Positions 1,711-29,202 of a stretch of DNA of 38,014 nt are shown here, piece after piece (within the stretch, counting starts at the first letter, position 1; each line of letters starts with the position of its first letter). The DNA lies in the UHGV virus genome UHGV-0042156, one strand, 5' to 3'. The notes beneath the pieces were generated by a model. It worked only from the letters and a program-made list of their open reading frames with translations. It had not been told where the DNA came from and made no database searches. The stretch is from a virus. The translations under genes and the position numbers were made by a program.

Positions 1711-2535
1711 TCATTCACCATCCTGCTCCGGCGGTTCTGGCAGCGGCATCCAGTGGGGTACTTTCGATGCCGGCTCTTCCCCATCGTCAGTAACTGCCCA
1801 CCATTTGTTTCTCGACCAATCGTAATACCCTTCGAAGGTATCGCACTCAGTCCAGCCGTAAGACTTACCCCAACACCAAACATACTGTTTATCGTTCGGC
1901 ATTCGCTCACTACAGCTTATCCAACCATCCGGAGTTACCGGATAGTTGCCACCCTGAACAGTAGGCATATCCGGACCTTTGCGAATCGCCCTGGCAAGAT
2001 CGATTGGGTCGTCGTACAACCAGTCACCTGTTTGCGGATTATTTGCTTCTGCCAATTGTGCAGCCCACTCCAGGCCGTCTTTGTGTCCTTGCAGATAGTC
2101 CAGCGGTAACTCATCACTATTACTTACAGGTTCGGCCTGAAGCATGGCGGCGCGATAGGCGTTCCAGCCGACAGCTTTTCCGTGTTCAAACGCGCTGTCA
2201 AAGTCATCATCAATTTCCATCGCAGCGGGCACAGATACCGGCGCTGGCGGGGCGGTGTAGAGCGGCATTACCTCAATATTGAAGATATCCCCCTCGCTTG
2301 GACACGCCTCTGCGCTACCGTAAACCCAAGGGTGAACGACTCCGTTACGCTTGTTGATTAATCTGTGCGCCCACGCCACAGGCTCCGCTTCGAGCGATGC
2401 CAGCGCGATACGCGCATTATTAATCAGGAGGCTATCAGCAGGAGATAAAACAACATGAGCGTTACCCTCCGCATCAATTTCAGAATTCGTAATTTTTCTG
2501 AACAGCTTTGCCAGTTCTCTGGTAATAGTGCTCAT
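1711..2535 (-). CDS. Phage protein with Trp-rich C-terminal domain (DUF551-like)
   Basis: 274-aa ORF; C-terminal W/C-rich segment (WISCSERMPNDKQYVWCW...HWMPLPEPP); start overlaps upstream stop (ATGA). Confidence 0.8.
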   Translation of the reverse strand: MSTITRELAKLFRKITNSEIDAEGNAHVVLSPADSLLINNARIALASLEAEPVAWAHRLINKRNGVVHPWVYGSAEACPSEGDIFNIEVMPLYTAPPAPVSVPAAMEIDDDFDSAFEHGKAVGWNAYRAAMLQAEPVSNSDELPLDYLQGHKDGLEWAAQLAEANNPQTGDWLYDDPIDLARAIRKGPDMPTVQGGNYPVTPDGWISCSERMPNDKQYVWCWGKSYGWTECDTFEGYYDWSRNKWWAVTDDGEEPASKVPHWMPLPEPPEQDGE

Positions 2536-2810
2536 GGGCGAATCTCCGTCCTGCCACCAAGTAAGCGGATTGCCACTCGTTCCCGGAAGGTAAGCGGTCG
2601 ATGGTGTCCGCGGGCATTAACAATTTCAGGCTTTCCATTAGGCGGATAATTGACCCTGACCGATTGACCATCTAGCGCGTGAGAAGCCTCGAGTAGTGCT
2701 GACTTTAAGTGCGCAGGGCACTCTTTCTGCACCCGCTCGCCGTCTGAAATGACACCTGCAATCCCCTGAAGCATGCTGGCTAAATTGCTGAGATAATTTT
2801 TCACATTCAC
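2532..2810 (-). CDS. Hypothetical early protein
   Basis: 92-aa ORF translationally coupled to neighbours in leftward operon. Confidence 0.6.
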   Translation of the reverse strand: MNVKNYLSNLASMLQGIAGVISDGERVQKECPAHLKSALLEASHALDGQSVRVNYPPNGKPEIVNARGHHRPLTFRERVAIRLLGGRTEIRP

Positions 2811-3151
2811 TCTCCTTTACCGGTGCCATAGGCAGATAAGCACTCTTCAAATCCAGCCTGATTATCCGTTTGACCTAAACTGAAGCCATGCTGAAGACCA
2901 TGACGAAATGCGCTATCTTGCAATTTATCTGCGCTATCGAGCTTCGCTTCCAGTTCAGCGATTCGCTTCTCTGCGGTTTCCAACTCATCCAGCAGCGCCA
3001 CTGAGCGCAGAGCCAATTTCGCAAGCATGTTTGTATCCTTCAAGCTCATCAGCCAATGCCCAGGATTGCTTTTGCAATACTCCATATCAGCTAATTTATT
3101 GAGCCATTCAATTTTTTCTTGATTTAACGCCTGTTTATCGATGTTGCTCAT
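2807..3151 (-). CDS. Hypothetical early protein (coiled-coil)
   Basis: 114-aa ORF, 4-nt overlaps with both neighbours. Confidence 0.65.
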   Translation of the reverse strand: MSNIDKQALNQEKIEWLNKLADMEYCKSNPGHWLMSLKDTNMLAKLALRSVALLDELETAEKRIAELEAKLDSADKLQDSAFRHGLQHGFSLGQTDNQAGFEECLSAYGTGKGE

Positions 3152-12453: not shown

Positions 12454-14334
12454 ATGAGGCCAAGTGAACTCAGCGACCTGCTTTGGGCGCAGGTTGACAG
12501 GGTGGCTCCGCACCTGTTGCCAAACGGCAAGAAAGATGGGCATGAGTGGGTTGCCGGTAACGTCAACGGTGACAAGGGAAACAGCCTTAAGGTCAATCTT
12601 AGCGGCAAGAAAAAATGGGCTGATTTCGCTGAGGGGGACGGCGGTGACATGCTTGATTTGTGGATGGCATGTCGTGGAATTAACCTGCATCAGGCTATGC
12701 AGGAAGCGAAAGCATTTCTCGGTATCAAGGATGACGATCACCATTTCGATGCCAAACGTGAGAAGAAATTCTCCAGACCTGATCGCAAGAAAATCGCCCG
12801 CTACGTTACCAGAACAGAATCCCATCTTGAGTACCTGCAATCGCGTGGCATATCGCCAGAAGTCGTAAAGCGCTACGAGGTTGTCAGCGGCAAGGTGTGG
12901 AATGGAGAGCGGGAACTGGATGCTCTGGTGATTCCGTACAAACGCGATGGTGAGTTGTTGCAGGTAAAGCGAATCAGCACTGAGCGCCCGGACGGGAAGA
13001 AAGTTATTATGGCAGAAGGTGATTGCGAACCTTGTCTGTTCGGATGGCAGGCTCTGGACGCTGGCGTGAGGGCGGTTGTGCTTTGCGAAGGCGAAATTGA
13101 TTGTATGAGCTATGCGCAATACGGCATCTCGGCGTTATCCGTGCCGTTTGGTGGCGGGAAAGGCGCTAAGCAACAGTGGATTGAGTTTGAGTATCACAAC
13201 CTCGACAGGTTTGAGGAAATATTCATCTCGATGGACGTTGATGATGTTGGTCGTGAAGCCGCAAGGGAAATTGCAAGCCGACTTGGTGAACATCGTTGCC
13301 GTCTTGTTACTCTGCCGTACAAAGACATCAACGAATGCCTGATGAACGGTGTTACCGAGGATGAAATCTGGCAGTACATCGGCACGGCATCCTACTTCGA
13401 TCCTGAAGAACTCTACAGCGCGCGAGAGTTTTACCAGGACACTATCAACGCTTTCTACGGCAAGCAGCAGTATCTGTTTAATCCACCGTGGGAATCTCTG
13501 GCAGATAAATTCCAGTTCCGTGAGGCAGAGTTGACGCTGGTCAATGGTGTGAACGGTCACGGAAAAACGGAGGTTGTCGGGCATATGGCACTTGAGGCAA
13601 TGCGTCATGGTGTGAAGACGTGCATCGCGTCACTTGAGCTGAAGCCTGGTATTCTCCTTAAGCGCCTTACCCGTCAGGCGACGTGCTGCAAGATGCCGCC
13701 AGTGCTGGAAATTGACTCTGCATTTAAATTTTATGACGAAAGACTTTGGGTGTTTGGTCTGACCGGAACGGCGAAAGCCGACAGGCTGATCGAAATATTC
13801 GACTACGCTCGCCGCCGATACGGGATCCAGTTATTCATCATCGACAGCCTGATGAAATGTGGCATAGGCGACGATGACTATAACGGGCAGAAGGCGTTTG
13901 TTGACTCGATTTGCGACTTCAAAAACAAAACAAACTCCCACGTCATTCTCGTTACTCACTCGCGAAAAGGAGACAGCGAAGAAAAACCAACCGGGAAAAT
14001 GGACGTAAAAGGCTCTGGAGCGATAACAGACCTGACAGACAACCTTTTCATCATCTGGCGTAACAAGGCTCGCGAGAGAGCGTTACAGAGAGTTCAGAGT
14101 GGTGAAAAGATGTCAGAGAAGGACGAACAGCTACTGGCATCTCCGGCATCTGTTTTGATGCTTGAAAAACAACGTAACGGCGAAGGTTGGGAAGGTGGCG
14201 TCCCTTTGTTCCTTGACGAGCAATCGCACCAGTTCCTGCAACTTGAATCAGGATCGCCTTATAGCTACATCGCCAATATGCCGAAATCGGAATATGACGA
14301 GGCGTGGCGACAGGAAAACGTGACGGAGTATTAA
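12454..14334 (+). CDS. Bifunctional primase-helicase (Toprim primase plus DnaB/RecA-like ATPase)
   Basis: 626-aa ORF; Toprim-like acidic cluster (VVLCEGEIDCMS, DVDDVGRE); Walker A GVNGHGKT and Walker B-like LFIIDSL; GAGGGA SD; occupies the lambda P slot. Confidence 0.8.
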   Translation: MRPSELSDLLWAQVDRVAPHLLPNGKKDGHEWVAGNVNGDKGNSLKVNLSGKKKWADFAEGDGGDMLDLWMACRGINLHQAMQEAKAFLGIKDDDHHFDAKREKKFSRPDRKKIARYVTRTESHLEYLQSRGISPEVVKRYEVVSGKVWNGERELDALVIPYKRDGELLQVKRISTERPDGKKVIMAEGDCEPCLFGWQALDAGVRAVVLCEGEIDCMSYAQYGISALSVPFGGGKGAKQQWIEFEYHNLDRFEEIFISMDVDDVGREAAREIASRLGEHRCRLVTLPYKDINECLMNGVTEDEIWQYIGTASYFDPEELYSAREFYQDTINAFYGKQQYLFNPPWESLADKFQFREAELTLVNGVNGHGKTEVVGHMALEAMRHGVKTCIASLELKPGILLKRLTRQATCCKMPPVLEIDSAFKFYDERLWVFGLTGTAKADRLIEIFDYARRRYGIQLFIIDSLMKCGIGDDDYNGQKAFVDSICDFKNKTNSHVILVTHSRKGDSEEKPTGKMDVKGSGAITDLTDNLFIIWRNKARERALQRVQSGEKMSEKDEQLLASPASVLMLEKQRNGEGWEGGVPLFLDEQSHQFLQLESGSPYSYIANMPKSEYDEAWRQENVTEY

Positions 14335-14363
14335 ATGACCATCTACATCACTGAGCTAATAAC

Positions 14364-14395
14364 AGGCCTGCTGGTAATCGCAGGCCTTTTTATTT
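14364..14395 (+). terminator. Rho-independent terminator (tR2-like) before nin region
   Basis: AGGCCTGC-TGGTAATC-GCAGGCCT followed by TTTTTATTT. Confidence 0.65.
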
Positions 14396-14411
14396 GGGGG
14401 AGAGGGAAGTC

Positions 14412-14828
14412 ATGAAAAAGCTAACCTTTGAAATTCGATCTCCAGCACATCAGCAAAACGCTATTCACGCAGTACAGCAAATCCTTCCAGACCCAACCAA
14501 GCCAATCGTAGTAACCATTCAGGAGCGCAACCGCAGCATTCGGCAAAATGCACGCCTTCACGCGATGCTATCTGAAATAAGTAAGAAGGCTACATATCAT
14601 GGAAAAGTAAGAAATATTGAGTTTTGGAAGGGGTTATTCGTTTCTGGTTGGCAGATTGCAACCAACCAGCACCCTGAGATTATATCAGGGTTAGAAGGTG
14701 AGCTAATAAACATCAGAGAGAGTACGGCGACTCTATCTGTAAAAAAAATATCCGAAATAATGGACTACATAGAAGCATATTGTGCCATGAACTCAATTCA
14801 TCTTAGCGAATGGAGGAATTATGATTGA
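14412..14828 (+). CDS. ninB: NinB recombination protein (3' part divergent)
   Basis: MKKLTFEIRSPAHQQNAIHAVQQILPDPTKPIVVTIQERNRS matches lambda NinB as recalled, then continues in AT-rich divergent sequence to a new C-terminus. Confidence 0.85.
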   Translation: MKKLTFEIRSPAHQQNAIHAVQQILPDPTKPIVVTIQERNRSIRQNARLHAMLSEISKKATYHGKVRNIEFWKGLFVSGWQIATNQHPEIISGLEGELINIRESTATLSVKKISEIMDYIEAYCAMNSIHLSEWRNYD

Positions 14829-15394
14829 GGTTTGGGTAGATATCGAAGGGATTCCATTTTATCAGGTTAGCAATAAAGGAAATTTCAGGTCTATTACGAG
14901 GGAAGTTACAGTAACATCAACCAGACAGAGGCCATATAAGAAAATAATTAATGGCACTAGCGTAAAACCATTCAAGTGCAAGTCGACAGGATATCTTCAA
15001 ATAAAGGTATACGGTAAGAAATACAGCGCCCACAGGATAGTTGCGAAAGCATTCTGTACAGGGTTCTGTGATGGCTTGGTAGTTAATCACAAAAATGGGC
15101 AAAGAGATGACAATAGGGCTGAAAACCTTGAATGGGTATCACATTCTGAAAACTCAAAGCACGGATATAAACAAAATGGAAGAATACCTATATCGCTAGG
15201 TAAATTTAGTGGTGATCATCCTGCCAGTAAAGCTGTTATTTCTACTGACATGAAAACTGGTGAGGAGGTTTATTATGAAGCAGCTATGGATGCTGTCAGA
15301 GAAGGATTTGATAGTTCGTCAATTAGTCGTTGCTGTAATGGCGAAAGCTCATATCACAAAGGAAGATTCTGGCGATTTGCAAATGAAACAATGA
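14530..15394 (+). mobile_element. Putative HNH cassette: divergent ninB 3' segment plus HNH gene
   Basis: AT-rich block beginning where ninB diverges from lambda and ending where lambda-like ninB tail codons (KARWGDRAA) resume, now fused to the HNH ORF. Confidence 0.4.
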
Positions 15395-15423
15395 AAGCGA
15401 GATGGGGAGATCGGGCTGCATGA
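14821..15423 (+). CDS. HNH endonuclease (NUMOD4 plus HNH), C-terminally fused to ninB tail codons
   Basis: GIPFYQVSNKGNFRS (NUMOD4-like), VNHKNGQRDDNRAENLEWVSHSEN (HNH); ends ...[10 protein letters not shown]. Confidence 0.8.
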   Translation: MIEVWVDIEGIPFYQVSNKGNFRSITREVTVTSTRQRPYKKIINGTSVKPFKCKSTGYLQIKVYGKKYSAHRIVAKAFCTGFCDGLVVNHKNGQRDDNRAENLEWVSHSENSKHGYKQNGRIPISLGKFSGDHPASKAVISTDMKTGEEVYYEAAMDAVREGFDSSSISRCCNGESSYHKGRFWRFANETMKARWGDRAA

Positions 15424-15947
15424 CTATCAAATCAAATACACCAGCACACGACAAGGACTGCTGGAGAACGCCGCTTTGGCTTTTTGATGCACTGGATATT
15501 GAGTTTGGATTCTGGCTGGATTCGGCAGCGAGCGACAAAAATGCTCTGTGCGCTCACTGGCTAACTGAGGCCGACGACGCACTCAATTCTGAGTGGATAA
15601 GCCGCGGTGCAATCTGGAATAACCCACCGTACAGCAATATCAGGCCGTGGGTGGAAAAAGCCGCTGAGCAGTGCATACAACAGCGCCAGACGGTAGTGAT
15701 GCTTGTGCCAGAGGATATGTCTGTCGGATGGTTCAGCAAGGCTCTGGAGAGTGTTGACGAAGTTCGCATCATCACTGATGGACGGATTAATTTTATCGAA
15801 CCATCGACAGGGCTGGAGAAGAAGGGAAACAGCAAAGGTTCCATGCTGCTGATTTGGCGACCGTTCATCAGTCCTCGACGGATGTTTACTACCGTATCCA
15901 AAGCGGCATTGATGGCGATCGGGCAGGGCGTCAGGAGGGCTGCATGA
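15420..15947 (+). CDS. Phage DNA N6-adenine methyltransferase
   Basis: NPPY motif (WNNPPYSN); 175 aa; start overlaps HNH stop (ATGA), the junction used by ninC in lambda. Confidence 0.8.
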
Positions 15948-16120
15948 GACGACAGCGACGAAGTATCACCGACATAATCTGCGAAAACTGCAAATACCTT
16001 CCAACTAAACGCTCCAGAAATAAACGCAAGCCAATCCCAAAAGAATCTGACGTAAAAACCTTCAATTACACGGCTCATCTGTGGGATATCCGGTGGCTAA
16101 GACATCGTGCGAGGAAATGA
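15944..16120 (+). CDS. ninE: NinE
   Basis: [58 protein letters not shown], colinear with lambda NinE. Confidence 0.75.
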
Positions 16121-16533
16121 CAATGGATTATTCACAGTTAAGTGATTTTGAAATTAACAGACGAGTATGTGAGGCTTTAGATATGGAGGAGCATTTCTTC
16201 ATACCTGATGACGAAGCAGACTTCGATTCTGAGATCCCCACTGACGAAAGAGGTCCTATTTGGCAGACGCAAAAAAGGGATATTAATGGCTTCCGTTCTT
16301 CAAACGGAAATTGCTTCAATCCTTGCAATAATCCTGAATATGCGTGGCCAATTATCACTGAAAACAAAATCAGCATAATGTTTGATAGTACCGATACGAG
16401 ATATGAAGGCGAATATCACGAGTGGTGTGATGCGATTTCATCTTGTCAAAAGTTCGGAATTCAGTATCAGTCTAATCCACTCCGCGCCGCCATGATTGTC
16501 TTTCTCATGATGCAGGACGCCAATAATGCTTAG
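16117..16533 (+). CDS. Nin-region hypothetical protein (NinX-like position)
   Basis: 138-aa ORF, start overlaps ninE stop; acidic N-terminal half. Confidence 0.6.
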
Positions 16534-16702
16534 CCCATCCCAATCCCTTCAATACCAGAAAGAAAGCGTCGAGCGGGCTTTAACGTGCGCTAACTGCGGT
16601 CAGAAGCTGCATGTGCTGGAAGTTCACGTGTGCTCAGATTGCTGCGCAGAACTGATGAGCGATCCGAATAGCTCAATGTACGAGGAAGAAGACGATGAAT
16701 GA
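16526..16702 (+). CDS. ninF: NinF
   Basis: Manual translation [58 protein letters not shown], near-identical to lambda NinF as recalled; below ORF-track size cutoff. Confidence 0.7.
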   Translation: MLSPSQSLQYQKESVERALTCANCGQKLHVLEVHVCSDCCAELMSDPNSSMYEEEDDE

Positions 16703-17204
16703 TGTTAAAGAAAAAGATATCCCCGGCTTTGAGGGTATATATAAAGTAAATGAAAATGGAGACATCATTTCATGCCGTAAATCAAAAAAATTATCTCATG
16801 GCATTAAACCAGGAGGATATGCATTTGTCGGTCTGTATCCAGGTGGCGGGAAAAGACCATCATATAAAATGGTTCACAGAATTGTTGCAGAAGTATTTAT
16901 TGATAACCCAGATGGCAAACCGGAAGTTAATCACAAGGATGGAAATAAACTTAATAATAAAGTTGAAAATCTTGAGTGGGTAACGCGAACAGAAAATGCG
17001 AAACATGGATTTGATTCCGGATTGCTTGTTCATGGGTTTAATCATCACTTCTGCAAACTAACGCCAGAACAAGTGAAATCAATATATAAATCAAAAGGCA
17101 AATACAGAGATATAGCCAAAGAATTTGGTGTTTGTGCGCAGACAGTGTGCAACATAAAAAACAAATCAGCGTACCGACGTTTTTTGGAGGGGATTGATGT
17201 TTAG
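16695..17204 (+). CDS. HNH endonuclease (NUMOD4 plus HNH plus C-terminal HTH)
   Basis: IPGFEGIYKVNENGDIIS, VNHKDGNKLNNKVENLEWVTRTEN, DIAKEFGVCAQTVCNIKN; overlaps ninF stop and next gene start; AT-rich. Confidence 0.8.
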   Translation: MNDVKEKDIPGFEGIYKVNENGDIISCRKSKKLSHGIKPGGYAFVGLYPGGGKRPSYKMVHRIVAEVFIDNPDGKPEVNHKDGNKLNNKVENLEWVTRTENAKHGFDSGLLVHGFNHHFCKLTPEQVKSIYKSKGKYRDIAKEFGVCAQTVCNIKNKSAYRRFLEGIDV

Positions 17205-17472
17205 AAGCAAAAAATGGCTTCAGGCAGTCAGGGATATTGAATTTTGCGTTCTTTGCGGAAGATACGGAGTTCAGGCCGCTCACAGAAATGAAGGGAAGGG
17301 GGTTGGGATTAAAGTAGATGATTGCCTTACTGCTGCGCTATGTGTTGATTGTCATTCAAGAATTGATAATGGGAGAGATATGAGCAGGGAAGAGCGAAGG
17401 GCTGAAATGGATCGGGCCATTGTGCTTACCCTTAAAAAATTGGTTAACAATGGGAGGGTGTTTGTCCAATGA
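17197..17472 (+). CDS. Cys-rich nin-region protein (DUF1364-like)
   Basis: CVLCGRYG...CVDCHSRID Cys4 pattern; precedes rusA. Confidence 0.6.
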   Translation: MFRSKKWLQAVRDIEFCVLCGRYGVQAAHRNEGKGVGIKVDDCLTAALCVDCHSRIDNGRDMSREERRAEMDRAIVLTLKKLVNNGRVFVQ

Positions 17473-17831
17473 ACGAATATCAGTTTGTGCTTCCATACCC
17501 GCCGTCGCTGAATACCTACTGGCGAAGACGGGGGAGTCAATACTACATCAGCGATAAAGGCCAGAAATACCGAAAAGACGTTCAGCAAATCATCCGCCAA
17601 CTTAAGTTAGACATTTTCACCAAATCACGACTCCGCATCAAAGTCATCGCAGACGTTCCAGACTCCCGCCGCCGCGACCTCGACAACATCCTGAAAGGTT
17701 TACTCGACTCCCTTATCCACGCCGGATTTGCGGAAGACGACGAGCAATTCGATGACATTCGCGTAATTCGTGGCGTGAAAGTACCAGGCGGAAGGCTTGG
17801 AATAAAAATCACCGAACTGGAGAGCGTATGA
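17469..17831 (+). CDS. rusA: RusA Holliday-junction resolvase
   Basis: 120-aa ORF MNEYQFVLPYPPSLNTYWRRRG...DLDNILKGLLDSL. Confidence 0.85.
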   Translation: MNEYQFVLPYPPSLNTYWRRRGSQYYISDKGQKYRKDVQQIIRQLKLDIFTKSRLRIKVIADVPDSRRRDLDNILKGLLDSLIHAGFAEDDEQFDDIRVIRGVKVPGGRLGIKITELESV

Positions 17832-18016
17832 ACGCCACAATTCAAACGATACCAGAGCTTCTTATCCAGACACGAGGCAATCAGACCGAAGTGGCAAGGA
17901 TGCTTTCCTGCGCAAGAGGAACAGTGCTCAAGTACAACCGAGACAGCAAAGGCGAGCGTCACGTAATAGTTAACGGCGTCCTGATGGTCAAACAGGGCAA
18001 GAGGGGAAGACGATGA
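17828..18016 (+). CDS. ninH: NinH
   Basis: TIPELLIQTRGNQTEVARMLSCARGTVLKYNRDSKGERHVIVNGVLMV colinear with lambda NinH. Confidence 0.7.
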   Translation: MNATIQTIPELLIQTRGNQTEVARMLSCARGTVLKYNRDSKGERHVIVNGVLMVKQGKRGRR

Positions 18017-18531
18017 GCATAAGAGAACTAAACCTCACCAAAGAACAGCACGATTGGCTGAATGGCTGGCTTGAACTGTGGGGCGCATGGGTTTATTCAG
18101 GCCGCCTGGAAAAGCGCATGAGCAGCGTAATAGCGAAGTTCATGGAGAGCGTAGAGCCGGGAAGAGTTATGACAAGGCCAATGTGTAATGATGATGATGG
18201 AATGTTGATTTCTCAGGTCGTCGATTCCGTCATGTACATTGACAAGAAAGCCTTTAGCATCCTCCTCAGCTACTACGCTCATGGTTCATCTAAGCGAGCA
18301 ATTGCATCCTACTATCACGCGACTGCAAAGCCACGCAAGATGTGTGGACGTGGTGGCGAGGGATGGAGAAAACCTTCACTGGCAACCTGTAGAAACGAAA
18401 TTGACGACATCCTGAAAGCGTCATTATTTGTTTTATACCAGCCGATGCAAAATGCTTTCAAAATGCGTAAACGTGTTGAGAAAGTTAAGCATGTTGCTGT
18501 TAAAAGCCTTGACATGCAATTAGCCATTTAG
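18013..18531 (+). CDS. Q: Late-gene antiterminator Q (non-lambda type)
   Basis: 172-aa ORF immediately upstream of late promoter/terminator and lysis genes; not colinear with lambda Q. Confidence 0.8.
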   Translation: MSIRELNLTKEQHDWLNGWLELWGAWVYSGRLEKRMSSVIAKFMESVEPGRVMTRPMCNDDDGMLISQVVDSVMYIDKKAFSILLSYYAHGSSKRAIASYYHATAKPRKMCGRGGEGWRKPSLATCRNEIDDILKASLFVLYQPMQNAFKMRKRVEKVKHVAVKSLDMQLAI

Positions 18532-18538
18532 CCATAAT
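18509..18538 (+). promoter_or_regulatory. Candidate late promoter pR-prime (TTGACA-N18-CATAAT) overlapping Q 3' end
   Basis: TTGACA at 18509..18514, CATAAT at 18533..18538, just upstream of the terminator. Confidence 0.4.
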
Positions 18539-18547
18539 TAGAAGGTA

Positions 18548-18594
18548 AGCTGCCGTTAGTGACTCTTAAGTTGCAACGGTGGCTTTTTTATTTG
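18548..18594 (+). terminator. tR-prime-like terminator
   Basis: 10-bp stem AGCTGCCGTT/AACGGTGGCT (two G-U pairs), 17-nt loop, then TTTTTTATTTG; downstream leader resumes lambda-like sequence. Confidence 0.5.
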
Positions 18595-19029
18595 CACAAC
18601 AGGTAAGAGCATTGAACCCGCAGACCTCGCGGAATTGGTGAAAGGTGCCGCGCAGTGCTCTTATCGTTGTGGTGAATGCACAGGCTGATGTGTAAGGGCA
18701 AGAATCTTTCGCTGGATTCGGTGTGGCCACGTAGCCCGCTGTAGGCAGTTGCAGCAAACCGGAGATCAGCACCGGTCGCCACAATCCAAACTGAGCCGTA
18801 GCCACTGGCTATCATGAATTCATCGGTGATAGTTACGCTGCGGACTTCTACACATGACCTTCGTGAAAGCGGGTAGCAAGAGGTTGCGCTAACAACCTCC
18901 TGCCGTTTTGCCCGTGCATATCGGTCACGAACAAATCTGATTACTAAACACAGTAGCCTGGATTTGTTCTATCAGTAATCGACCTTATTCCTAATTAAAT
19001 AGAGCAAATCCCCTTATTGGGGGTAAGAC
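18595..19029 (+). other. Untranslated late-operon leader (lambda-like)
   Basis: No credible coding frame; lambda-like sequence up to S start as recalled. Confidence 0.5.
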
Positions 19030-19353
19030 ATGAAGATGCCAGAAAAACATGACCTGTTAGCCGCCATTCTCGCGGCAAAGGAACAAGGCATCGGGGCAAT
19101 CCTTGCGTTTGCAATGGCGTACCTTCGCGGCAGATATAATGGCGGTGCGTTTACAAAAACAGTAATCGACGCAACGATGTGCGCCATTATCGCCTGGTTC
19201 ATTCGTGACCTTCTCGACTTCGCCGGACTAAGTAGCAATCTCGCTTATATAACGAGCGTGTTCATCGGCTACATCGGTACTGACTCGATTGGTTCGCTTA
19301 TCAAACGCTTCGCTGCTAAAAAAGCCGGAGTAGAAGATGGTGGAAATCAATAA
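19030..19353 (+). CDS. S: Holin S (lambda S, dual-start MKM)
   Basis: [34 protein letters not shown]... matches lambda S. Confidence 0.95.
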
Positions 19354-19813
19354 TCAACGTAAGGCGTTCCTCGATATGCTGGCGTGGTCAGAGGGAACTG
19401 ATAACGGACGTCAGAAAACCAGAAATCATGGTTATGACGTCATTGTTGGCGGAGAGCTATTCACTGATTACTCCGATCACCCTCGCAAACTTGTCACGCT
19501 AAACCCCAAACTCAAATCAACAGCCGCCGGGCGCTACCAGCTTCTTTCCCGTTGGTGGGATTCCTATCGTAAGCAGCTTGGCCTGAAAGACTTCTCCCCC
19601 AAAAGCCAGGACGCAGTGGCATTGCAGCAGATTAAAGAACGTGGCGCTTTACCGATGATTGATCGGGGTGATATTCGTCAGGCTATTGATCGTTGCAGCA
19701 ATATTTGGGCTTCATTGCCCGGTGCTGGCTACGGTCAGTATGAACACAAGATCGATAGTCTGATTGCCAAATTCAAAGAAGCTGGCGGGGTGGTTAATGA
19801 AACTTCGCTATAA
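19337..19813 (+). CDS. R: Endolysin R (lytic transglycosylase)
   Basis: [45 protein letters not shown]... matches lambda R. Confidence 0.95.
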
Positions 19814-28436: not shown

Positions 28437-28541
28437 ATGCCGATTCAGCAACTTCCGCTTATGAAAGGTGTCGGCAAAGACTTTCGAAACGCCGACTATA
28501 TCGACTATCTGCCAGTGAATATGTTGGCAATTTTGATATAA
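28437..28541 (+). pseudogene. Truncated original 5' end of gene 10 (31 native codons, then stop)
   Basis: [31 protein letters not shown] matches P22 gp10 N-terminus, then runs into ILI-stop at the insertion point. Confidence 0.65.
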
Positions 28542-29202
28542 TAAGTACATGAAAAATCGAAACTTTAAGGAGTAGATATGCTTTCTGAGAATGCTAAAGA
28601 TATACCTGGATTTGAAGGTGTTTATGCCGTAACAGAAGATGGCAGGGTGCATTCTCACTCACGTGTTGTTAAGGCTGCGCATGGCAGCACGCAACTCAGA
28701 AAGGGGCGCTGGTTAAAGCCTAAAATAAATCAGGGAAGGGTGCTTTATAATATCGGAGCAAAATGGACTTTTGCCCATCGAATCGTTGCAATGACATTCC
28801 TGCCAAATCCTGAAAACAAGCCTCAGGTAAATCATATTGATGGCAATCCACTCAATAATAACGTCAATAATCTTGAGTGGTGCACTCAAAGCGAAAACAT
28901 CAAACATGCATACGCCACAGGATTAAAGAAACCAATCAAGTTTTTCGGAACCAAGCACCCAAAACACAAGTTGAGTGATGACGATGTTCTTGCAATCAAG
29001 TCATCAAAAGAAAGCTTGTCAGTAATTGCGGCTAAGTACGGGATATCTAAGACCTGGGCAAGTAGGCTAAAGCGTGATGCTAACTGGGTTCATATAAAGG
29101 TTGATTCCAATGGCAATACAACAACTACCACTAATGAAGGGATTAGGGAAAAGTGCGGTTAATGCTGATTATATAGACCAACTTCCAGTCAATCTTTTAG
29201 CT
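28530..29202 (+). mobile_element. HNH endonuclease cassette inserted in gene 10, carrying a divergent copy of gene-10 codons 1-31
   Basis: 93-bp segment 29110..29202 encodes the same 31 residues as 28437..28529 with different, AT-rich codons; HNH gene lies between the two copies. Confidence 0.55.
28578..29162 (+). CDS. HNH endonuclease (NUMOD4 plus HNH plus C-terminal HTH)
   Basis: IPGFEGVYAVTEDGRVHS, VNHIDGNPLNNNVNNLEWCTQSEN, VIAAKYGISKTWASRLKR; 3' end overlaps restored gene-10 start. Confidence 0.8.
   Translation: MLSENAKDIPGFEGVYAVTEDGRVHSHSRVVKAAHGSTQLRKGRWLKPKINQGRVLYNIGAKWTFAHRIVAMTFLPNPENKPQVNHIDGNPLNNNVNNLEWCTQSENIKHAYATGLKKPIKFFGTKHPKHKLSDDDVLAIKSSKESLSVIAAKYGISKTWASRLKRDANWVHIKVDSNGNTTTTTNEGIREKCG

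Follow-up and report, generated by a model that had tools for sequence, protein, structure and literature searches.

The HNH gene and its neighbors

The 38,014-nucleotide virus genome UHGV-0042156, referred to here as the window (the whole stretch of DNA that we analyzed), carries between ninF and rusA a gene for an I-HmuI-like HNH endonuclease. This gene (16695..17204, + strand; 169 amino acids [aa], ATG start) follows ninF (16526..16702, +; Pfam NinF, 51.6 bits; TGA stop at 16700-16702). It is itself followed by a 91-aa, DUF968-like Cys4 gene (17197..17472, +), which has weak Pfam matches to DUF968 and YbcO and which we call type 2, and then by rusA (17469..17831, +; Pfam RusA). The GC content of the HNH gene, 36.3%, looks foreign: the window as a whole has 47.3%, and ninF and rusA have about 50%. 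The region of the window that we examined is 100% identical to a P22-like prophage that lies beside ybhC in Escherichia coli MS 115-1 (NZ_CP146665.1), and the window spans that prophage from the integrase side to the tailspike. There, the Prokaryotic Genome Annotation Pipeline (PGAP) names the protein WP_001000607.1, a “NUMOD4 motif-containing HNH endonuclease,” and the gene is thus already annotated publicly, yet uncharacterized. An initial annotation, made from the letters of the window, had described this gene as its second HNH endonuclease, which is correct as to order along the window, although the window has three such genes (at 14821, 16695, and 28578).

The HNH gene overlaps both of its neighbors, as the initial annotation had noticed. 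Its ATG lies inside ATGAATGATG, and with the ninF TGA at 16700-16702, this gives an 8-nucleotide (nt) overlap, such that the HNH start and the ninF stop are both contained in ATGAATGA. At the other end, ATGTTTAG holds the Cys4 ATG (17197) and the HNH TAG (17202-17204), which creates a second 8-nt overlap. A Shine-Dalgarno motif and new ATG for the Cys4 gene (17186..17199, +) are found within the HNH 3′ end, with GGAGG at 17186-17190, inside the HNH coding sequence and 7 nt 5′ of the Cys4 ATG. The 3′ end of the HNH gene therefore supplies the ribosome-binding site and the start codon of the type 2 gene. Such tight packing had been read as a hallmark of free-standing homing endonucleases, and this reading did not hold up. 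In the identical prophage, as annotated by PGAP, each of the ten successive junctions between ninB and Q has an overlap of 4 or 8 nt. An ATGARTGA overlap with ninF of the same form also opens roi in HK97 (ATGAATGA) and, as ATGAGTGA, an 89-aa open reading frame (ORF) in mEp235, vB_EcoP-611R6, and phiv205-1. Because every ninB-to-Q junction overlaps and because roi and the 89-aa ORF share the ATGARTGA start, we rejected the overlaps as a diagnostic of homing and regard tight packing as a property of the operon.

The description of the gene as free-standing was well founded. It is a contiguous ORF that overlaps both neighbors and lies outside any intron or intein, and a search of Rfam over positions 14000-19500, at E values of up to 0.1, returned zero matches, so that there is no intron at this locus. 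A scan for promoters and terminators over 16000-18100 found sites no more numerous than in shuffled sequence and zero terminators, and it gave no indication that the gene has its own transcription unit.

The gene product is an I-HmuI-family HNH endonuclease, with its nuclease activity predicted from sequence and a structural model. Pfam places a NUMOD4 N-terminal beta-strand DNA-binding region (PF07463; 26.1 bits against a curated cutoff of 23.4) at residues 7-48 (16713..16838, +) and an HNH_3 beta-beta-alpha-metal core (PF13392; 42.2 bits, cutoff 24.8) at residues 58-102 (16866..17000, +). PHROGs assigns the protein to phrog_59 (E = 2e-50), whereas NCBIfam gave zero matches for this protein, for both Cys4 types (the second is introduced below), and for the other two HNH proteins. 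By sequence, I-HmuI (1u3e) is the sole relative with a solved structure (E = 9.4e-19, residues 6-121), and an AlphaFold (AF2) model built on 46 homologues, with a mean predicted local distance difference test score of 91.8, has beta strands in the NUMOD4 region and again leads to I-HmuI. In a Foldseek comparison with the PDB, 1u3e was the only significant match (E = 3.9e-10, 165 columns, template modeling [TM] score of 0.58), with the next at an E value of 0.055. Residues N79, H80, N92, N101, and H104 are invariant among the 46 homologues, and in the alignment with I-HmuI, H80 and N101 fall at its DH and N positions.

The model also bears on the C-terminal helix-turn-helix (HTH) that the initial annotation had proposed. 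Helices at residues 124-132, 137-144, and 148-155 close the chain of the AF2 model and correspond to a predicted three-helix HTH at residues 124-155 (17064..17159, +) with a conserved GVCAQTVCNIK, delimited from the AF2 helices, Foldseek, and conservation. Since these helices end the model and I-HmuI aligns over 165 columns, a full-length match, the model supports a C-terminal HTH; Foldseek also gave weak matches of this region to sigma-4 and resolvase HTH domains. The likeness that had been drawn to the HNH protein encoded at 28578 is likewise apparent (42% identity, C-terminal part included), while identity to the third HNH protein, encoded at 14821, is 31%. The gene is under purifying selection, with a nonsynonymous difference (pN) of ~0.2 versus a synonymous difference (pS) of ~0.8 between HNH classes, and a dN/dS of 0.05 between the window HNH and the QML copy described below.

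A two-gene cassette at the type 1 slot

Among about 409 phage records having DNA in common with the stretch from ninX to rusA, only two, Louie and Dewey, carry the HNH gene (98.8% aa identity), and the next best phage match after these has 42% identity. Huey gave no HNH match and is apparently without the gene, with its presence in the searched phage collection unchecked; the genome announcement of Huey, Dewey, and Louie does not mention the HNH genes. Among 5,426 complete E. coli genomes, 34 have the HNH gene, while 1,808 match part of the stretch from ninF to rusA. HNH-less alleles thus make up the large majority of flank-sharing phages and E. coli genomes, and the gene is not universally present, which the initial annotation had named as the finding that would refute its proposal. 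A comparison of ninF-ninG junctions, which it had in mind, is inapplicable, as there is no ninG here and rusA comes next. Among public proteins, the HNH clade at 57-76% identity occurs in E. coli, Salmonella, Klebsiella aerogenes, Citrobacter koseri, and Superficieibacter, and IMG/VR HNH_3 proteins below ~55% identity lie in unrelated contexts. Two relatives with 46-54% identity, in Neisseria sicca (locus L221; L numbers denote loci in our comparison) and Haemophilus paraphrohaemolyticus (L222), are found near Cys4 His-Me finger genes and rusA, with the HNH relative downstream of the Cys4 gene, and they extend the locus association beyond Enterobacterales. A scan of genome contigs yielded only 4 loci. 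We conclude that the HNH gene is an accessory, horizontally shared gene.

We found that homology between the window and HK97, mEp235, 611R6, and phiv205-1 covers ninF as far as 16702/16703, is then lost, and returns exactly at the rusA ATG (17469). Given these breakpoints, the variable block consists of the HNH gene plus the Cys4 gene, and because homology persists to 16702/16703, the first 2 to 3 HNH codons derive from the displaced gene. The left junction, ATGAATGAT (16695..16703, +; from an alignment of the window, Louie, and Dewey with mEp235, 611R6, phiv205-1, and HK97), is common to the starts of the 89-aa ORF or roi in HNH-less phages. The HNH gene had been described as wedged between ninF and the Cys4 gene. 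It is indeed located there, but the Cys4 gene is itself a divergent allele that accompanies the HNH gene. A pure insertion between two resident genes is ruled out by the HK97-type homology breakpoints.

The association between the two genes is consistent. In the 10 of 10 contexts of homologues with at least 60% identity, a 91-aa type 2 gene lies directly downstream, with an HNH-type 2 overlap of 8 to 14 nt, and the type 2 gene is directly 3′ of HNH in all 33 full-length E. coli copies. The upstream gene is variable (ninF′, an 81-aa ORF, a 100-aa ORF, a gene for a 658-aa DNA methylase, or DUF1367), and type 2 is followed by diverged rusA alleles or by a DUF1133 Q-like gene. In IMG/VR, no relatives were found of the 81-aa ORF that lies upstream in L014. 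In E. coli, 32 of the 33 full-length copies follow ninF and one, QML220601, follows roi. In L041, which has a 58% relative of HNH, the next gene encodes a different, Ref-like Cys4 protein.

In most lambdoid phages, this slot holds a gene of another kind, which we call type 1, with or without roi or the 89-aa ORF. The type 1 protein of HK97, gp66, is a YbcO/DUF1364 protein (match to 3g27, E = 2.9e-38); the window type 2 protein has 29% identity to it over 55 aa, and a search of the PDB by sequence found nothing meaningful for type 2. DUF1364 and DUF968 have been placed in one His-Me finger group (group 7), with rusA, Q, and antirepressor genes as neighbors (PMC5714182), and types 1 and 2 are probably alternative versions of one function. 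HNH and type 2 are inherited as a two-gene cassette that replaces the YbcO/DUF1364 type 1 gene.

The most direct view of this replacement comes from a pair of loci. L140 has the order DUF1367-type 1-Q, L226 has DUF1367-HNH-type 2-Q, and the upstream DUF1367 proteins of the two are 98.5% identical. Their flanking DNA differs by scattered mismatches only; the two sequences part ~8 nt past the start codon of type 1 and come together again at the Q ATG. What has been exchanged is thus type 1 on one side and HNH with type 2 on the other. Where the copy is of the window type, the HNH-less alleles have a different Cys4 gene (HK97 type) or a different ninF (NCTC9104 type). The 178-aa HNH class, to which most relatives belong, is absent among the complete E. 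coli genomes, so that they yielded no filled/empty pair of this class.

Type 2 also occurs without the nuclease. NCTC9104, RM8082, and DETEC-S565 have type 2-rusA at ~98% nt identity but no HNH; the ninF′ that type 2 overlaps in them is another allele, and they become homologous to the window from ~17206, just past the HNH stop. The ninF′-type 2 arrangement is common: it is found at 18 of 20 IMG/VR loci with a type 2 protein at 77-81% identity, as well as in Salmonella phage SEN22, and type 2 lacks HNH at a further 23 loci in the Q context. HNH-free type 2 proteins begin with M-x-[IT]-[YF]-R-S-x-K-W and carry two extra N-terminal codons, whereas HNH-linked proteins begin with M-[FY]-R-S-K-K-W, and this difference indicates that the 3′ end of HNH replaces the first type 2 codons. 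On a type 2 protein tree, HNH-linked and HNH-free alleles are interspersed, with the HNH-linked alleles polyphyletic.

Two other features of HNH-free loci came to light. L008 and L009 (NCTC9104 and RM8082) look recombinant over 2329-2767, with a ninF′ protein 98% identical to that of HNH-free IMG/VR loci such as L123, a crossover within the first ~25 nt of the type 2 gene, and a ~98% nt match to the window from ~17206. L129 and L131 (2773-3270) contain an ORF of ~165 aa between an HNH-free type 2 gene and rusA, another endonuclease-like insertion, which in L131 has weak HNH similarity (35% over 69 aa).

The nuclease can also be lost from the cassette. In the 34th E. coli genome, AH19B041 (L010, 2136-2315), a 330-bp internal deletion has reduced HNH to a 59-aa NUMOD4 stub. 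The deleted stretch stops immediately short of GGAGGGGATTGATG, and the Shine-Dalgarno motif and type 2 ATG are kept, which is what would be expected if selection now acted only on the expression of the downstream gene. The IMG/VR locus L045 (1540-1719) has a stub of equal size. In two IMG/VR prophages, L033 (~2299-3008) and L045 (~838-1547), ninF is interrupted by a different HNH gene, in which HNH_3 is followed by an AP2-like region and which lies just upstream of the HNH gene of the cassette; ninF is thereby divided into a 5′ portion that has gained a new tail and a 3′ stub.

Junctions, remnants, and identity around the cassette

Relatives of the window HNH are mostly ~178 aa long and start with MANLRKEARGRECQV or a variant of it, which corresponds to codons 1-15 of HK97 gp66. 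The DNA of this N-terminal tag in L014 and L120 matches HK97 gp66 at 41 of 45 nt, while the HNH bodies are synonymously saturated (pS of ~0.8). The tags therefore look either more recent than the divergence of the HNH genes or homogenized against the local type 1 gene. In Salmonella, the tag (MKKVDLHKQVRG..QV) agrees with the type 1 allele of that genomic context (MRKVDLRKSARGRECQV). Tags range in length from ~3 codons (L226) through 12 to 15 in most relatives and 17 in several to ~25 (L224), and left junctions fall at nt ~8, 28, ~37-45, ~51, and ~75 of type 1 genes. In QML220601, L035, and L036, roi is followed by 28 nt of the gp66 5′ end, ~13 nt of the 3′ tail of ninF, and a 169-aa HNH gene. 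By its sequence, this arrangement is a window-type cassette, ninF tail included, that was illegitimately joined inside a type 1 5′ end in a separate event.

We also compared the cassette with its flanks in 15 independent window-type IMG/VR loci. HNH and type 2 have 99.1-99.9% identity per 100-nt bin, and identity among these HNH-carrying loci falls to 95% at the rusA start and is 95-98% through ninH. On the left, only the last 100 to 200 nt can be aligned in all 15 loci, and at least 3 ninF haplotypes, also found in HNH-less phages, abut an identical junction. This near-identical cassette between more diverged and, on the left, mosaic flanks suggests a young element that has spread recently. 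The last ~55 nt of ninF are invariant in HNH-carrying and HNH-less phages alike, and they are likely the left homology arm of the window-type cassette. Because HK97-type homology resumes exactly at the rusA ATG, rusA would serve as the right arm.

The other two HNH genes of the window have a similar arrangement at unrelated loci. Upstream of the third along the window (28578-29162) is a 31-codon remnant of gp10 (28437-28529) that matches the start of Louie gp10 at 89 of 93 nt and that PGAP marks as an incomplete gene in MS 115-1. The 3′ end of this HNH gene overlaps a complete gp10 (ATG at 29110), and its site corresponds to gp10 codon 31/32. The first 31 codons of the complete gp10 are largely synonymously recoded (61 of 93 nt identical to Louie), and the next 300 nt are 90% identical. 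The first HNH gene along the window (14821-15423; locus 14394-15423) comes after a ninB that is complete but divergent. The last ~9 codons of this HNH gene (KARWGDRAA) and its overlap with dam are those of an HK97/Louie-type ninB, and homology to Louie and HK97 resumes at ~15393; in Louie, which is without this HNH gene, ninB abuts dam directly. Each of the three HNH genes of the window is thus flanked on one side by a complete substitute gene, or gene end, and on the other by what is left of the version it displaced.

Homing, alternative explanations, and known systems

Taken together, these patterns lead us to favor, with some reservation, the hypothesis that the cassette is an intronless-homing element with its target in a ybcO-type gene and that it was spread by its nuclease. 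Under this hypothesis, HNH would be expressed from the delayed-early PR operon during lytic growth, and its NUMOD4 and HTH modules would bind the DNA of a co-resident phage or prophage that has no HNH gene. The enzyme would nick or cut near the first ~75 nt of the ybcO-type gene, and repair would copy from the donor both HNH and the linked type 2 gene, which is divergent in sequence and hence would escape cutting. The ninF 3′ end or the type 1 5′ stub could act as the left homology arm and rusA or Q as the right, with occasional illegitimate left joins giving rise to new in-frame fusions. From the positions of the junctions, we infer that the target may be type 1, HNH-free type 2, or both. The identity island, at 99.1-99.9% within flanks of 95-98%, is a population signature that fits biased inheritance, which is a different kind of evidence from a cross.

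Several points weigh against homing. A single old insertion, subsequently trimmed, could have produced the tags instead of repeated cutting. The window-type copy lacks a counterpart whose flanks are the same on either side and in which HNH is the sole difference, and the closest HNH-free type 2 alleles (NCTC9104, RM8082, and DETEC-S565) stand behind a different ninF′. HNH and type 2 are similarly divergent (72-75% versus 78-81%), which fits long-term functional linkage, and lambdoid recombination of the Red/RecT type can by itself move modules between conserved flanks. Finally, the functional role of Asp74 in I-HmuI is familiar from work on that enzyme, and the residue aligned with it is Asn79 throughout the clade, so that metal binding by the HNH protein is assumed.

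The point about recombination could be taken further, in that the cassette might be a passive mosaic module of the nin region, moved by Red, RecT, or Erf and kept or lost by drift, with a nuclease that plays no part in its own spread and may not act on phage DNA at all. As in other lambdoid mosaics, the junctions are all at or close to gene boundaries, the slot holds roi, the 89-aa ORF, type 1, or type 2 in other phages, and recombination alone could make HNH-linked alleles polyphyletic on the type 2 tree. Drift sits poorly, however, with strong purifying selection on an HNH gene whose catalytic core is intact, and a passive module does not readily account for an island of near identity that stops at the cassette edges, for recurrent type 1 5′ remnants together with an independent join at gp66 nt 28, or for three HNH genes of the same layout in one prophage. 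We therefore consider this explanation unlikely, although it is the strongest of the alternatives. Less probable again is a functional two-protein nuclease, in which HNH and the Cys4 His-Me finger protein would cooperate in phage recombination, replication, or competition. Such a partnership would explain why the genes are adjacent and translationally coupled, with a stop/start overlap, in 10 of 10 contexts. In its favor, too, both have diverged to a similar degree, distant relatives also adjoin Cys4 or rusA genes, and the neighborhood contains recombination genes (those for NinB and RusA). Yet type 2 is common without HNH (18 of 20 IMG/VR loci, the 23 Q-context loci, and the three E. coli genomes at 98% nt identity), the deletion that removed the nuclease left type 2 intact, and the other two HNH genes of the window lie, in the same layout, beside the unrelated genes ninB and gp10. 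It is on these last three grounds, the frequency of type 2 without HNH, the stub that keeps type 2, and the shared layout beside unrelated genes, that the alternatives fit less well than homing.

We give almost no credence to a third idea, that the protein is a packaging-associated HNH of the HK97 gp74 type that assists terminase, which has nothing in its favor beyond membership in the common HNH superfamily. The phage is P22-like, and P22-like phages package by a headful mechanism, which speaks against such a role. In MS 115-1, the gene for the DNA-packaging protein is ~4.1 kb and that for the large terminase ~4.6 kb downstream of the HNH stop, the NUMOD4-HNH_3-HTH architecture is that of I-HmuI, and the gene is absent from almost all relatives. 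A packaging role is effectively refuted by its position between ninF and rusA and by its distribution.

A broader and more tentative possibility is that I-HmuI-like endonucleases of lambdoid and P22-like phages are allele-replacement drives that carry their own substitutes for the genes they disrupt, and that their breaks, each repaired by one homologous and one illegitimate join, regularly create mosaic novel joints. The substitutes would then be the diverged ybcO analogue at 16695, the recoded 31-codon 5′ segment of gp10 at 28578, and the complete alternative ninB at 14821, and such drives would be a source of the “novel joints at gene boundaries” that compose lambdoid mosaicism. The ybcO locus offers a natural allele series (type 1 or type 2 on its own, HNH together with type 2, a stub left by deletion, and illegitimate reinsertions), which predicts the cut position of the enzyme. 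Since the cultivable phages Louie and Dewey carry the cassette, homing-driven replacement of modules in temperate phages is directly testable.

Among known systems, the protein most closely resembles I-HmuI of Bacillus phage SPO1 (PDB 1u3e; His-Me finger group 2, Pfam HNH_3), which has the same N-terminal beta-strand region, HNH core, and C-terminal HTH in ~170 aa. The members of His-Me finger group 2 have been described as homing endonucleases with NUMOD and HTH modules (PMC5714182). I-HmuI is encoded by a group I intron, whereas the window HNH is free-standing; the two are 29% identical in the structural alignment, and the window protein has Asn in place of the residue aligned with Asp74. 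The YbcO/DUF1364 and DUF968 prophage proteins (PDB 3g27), whose function is predicted, are families of the partner or target gene and not of HNH itself.

As an element, the cassette would probably be of a known selfish kind. Its closest functional parallels would be SegF, SegG, SegB, and MobE of phage T4, for which intronless homing by free-standing endonucleases has been described (PMC2790892, PMC2330249, and PMC2988022). The features in common are a gene beside its presumed target, sporadic occurrence in relatives, and coinheritance of flanking markers. Unlike the T4 elements, the HNH gene of the window resides in a temperate lambdoid/P22-like phage; what flanks it is an entire substitute gene that has strongly diverged from the displaced type (29% identity over 55 aa), instead of a near-identical allele, and the endonuclease ORF continues in frame from a stub of the gene that was displaced. 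A precedent for such a fusion is gene 31 of phage epsilon34, an in-frame fusion of an eaE-like N-terminus to a presumed HNH homing endonuclease (PMC2629481). In that P22-like phage too, an HNH ORF takes its start and initial codons from a resident gene, although gene 31 lies in the early left operon, belongs to another HNH lineage, and has been described with no linked substitute gene.

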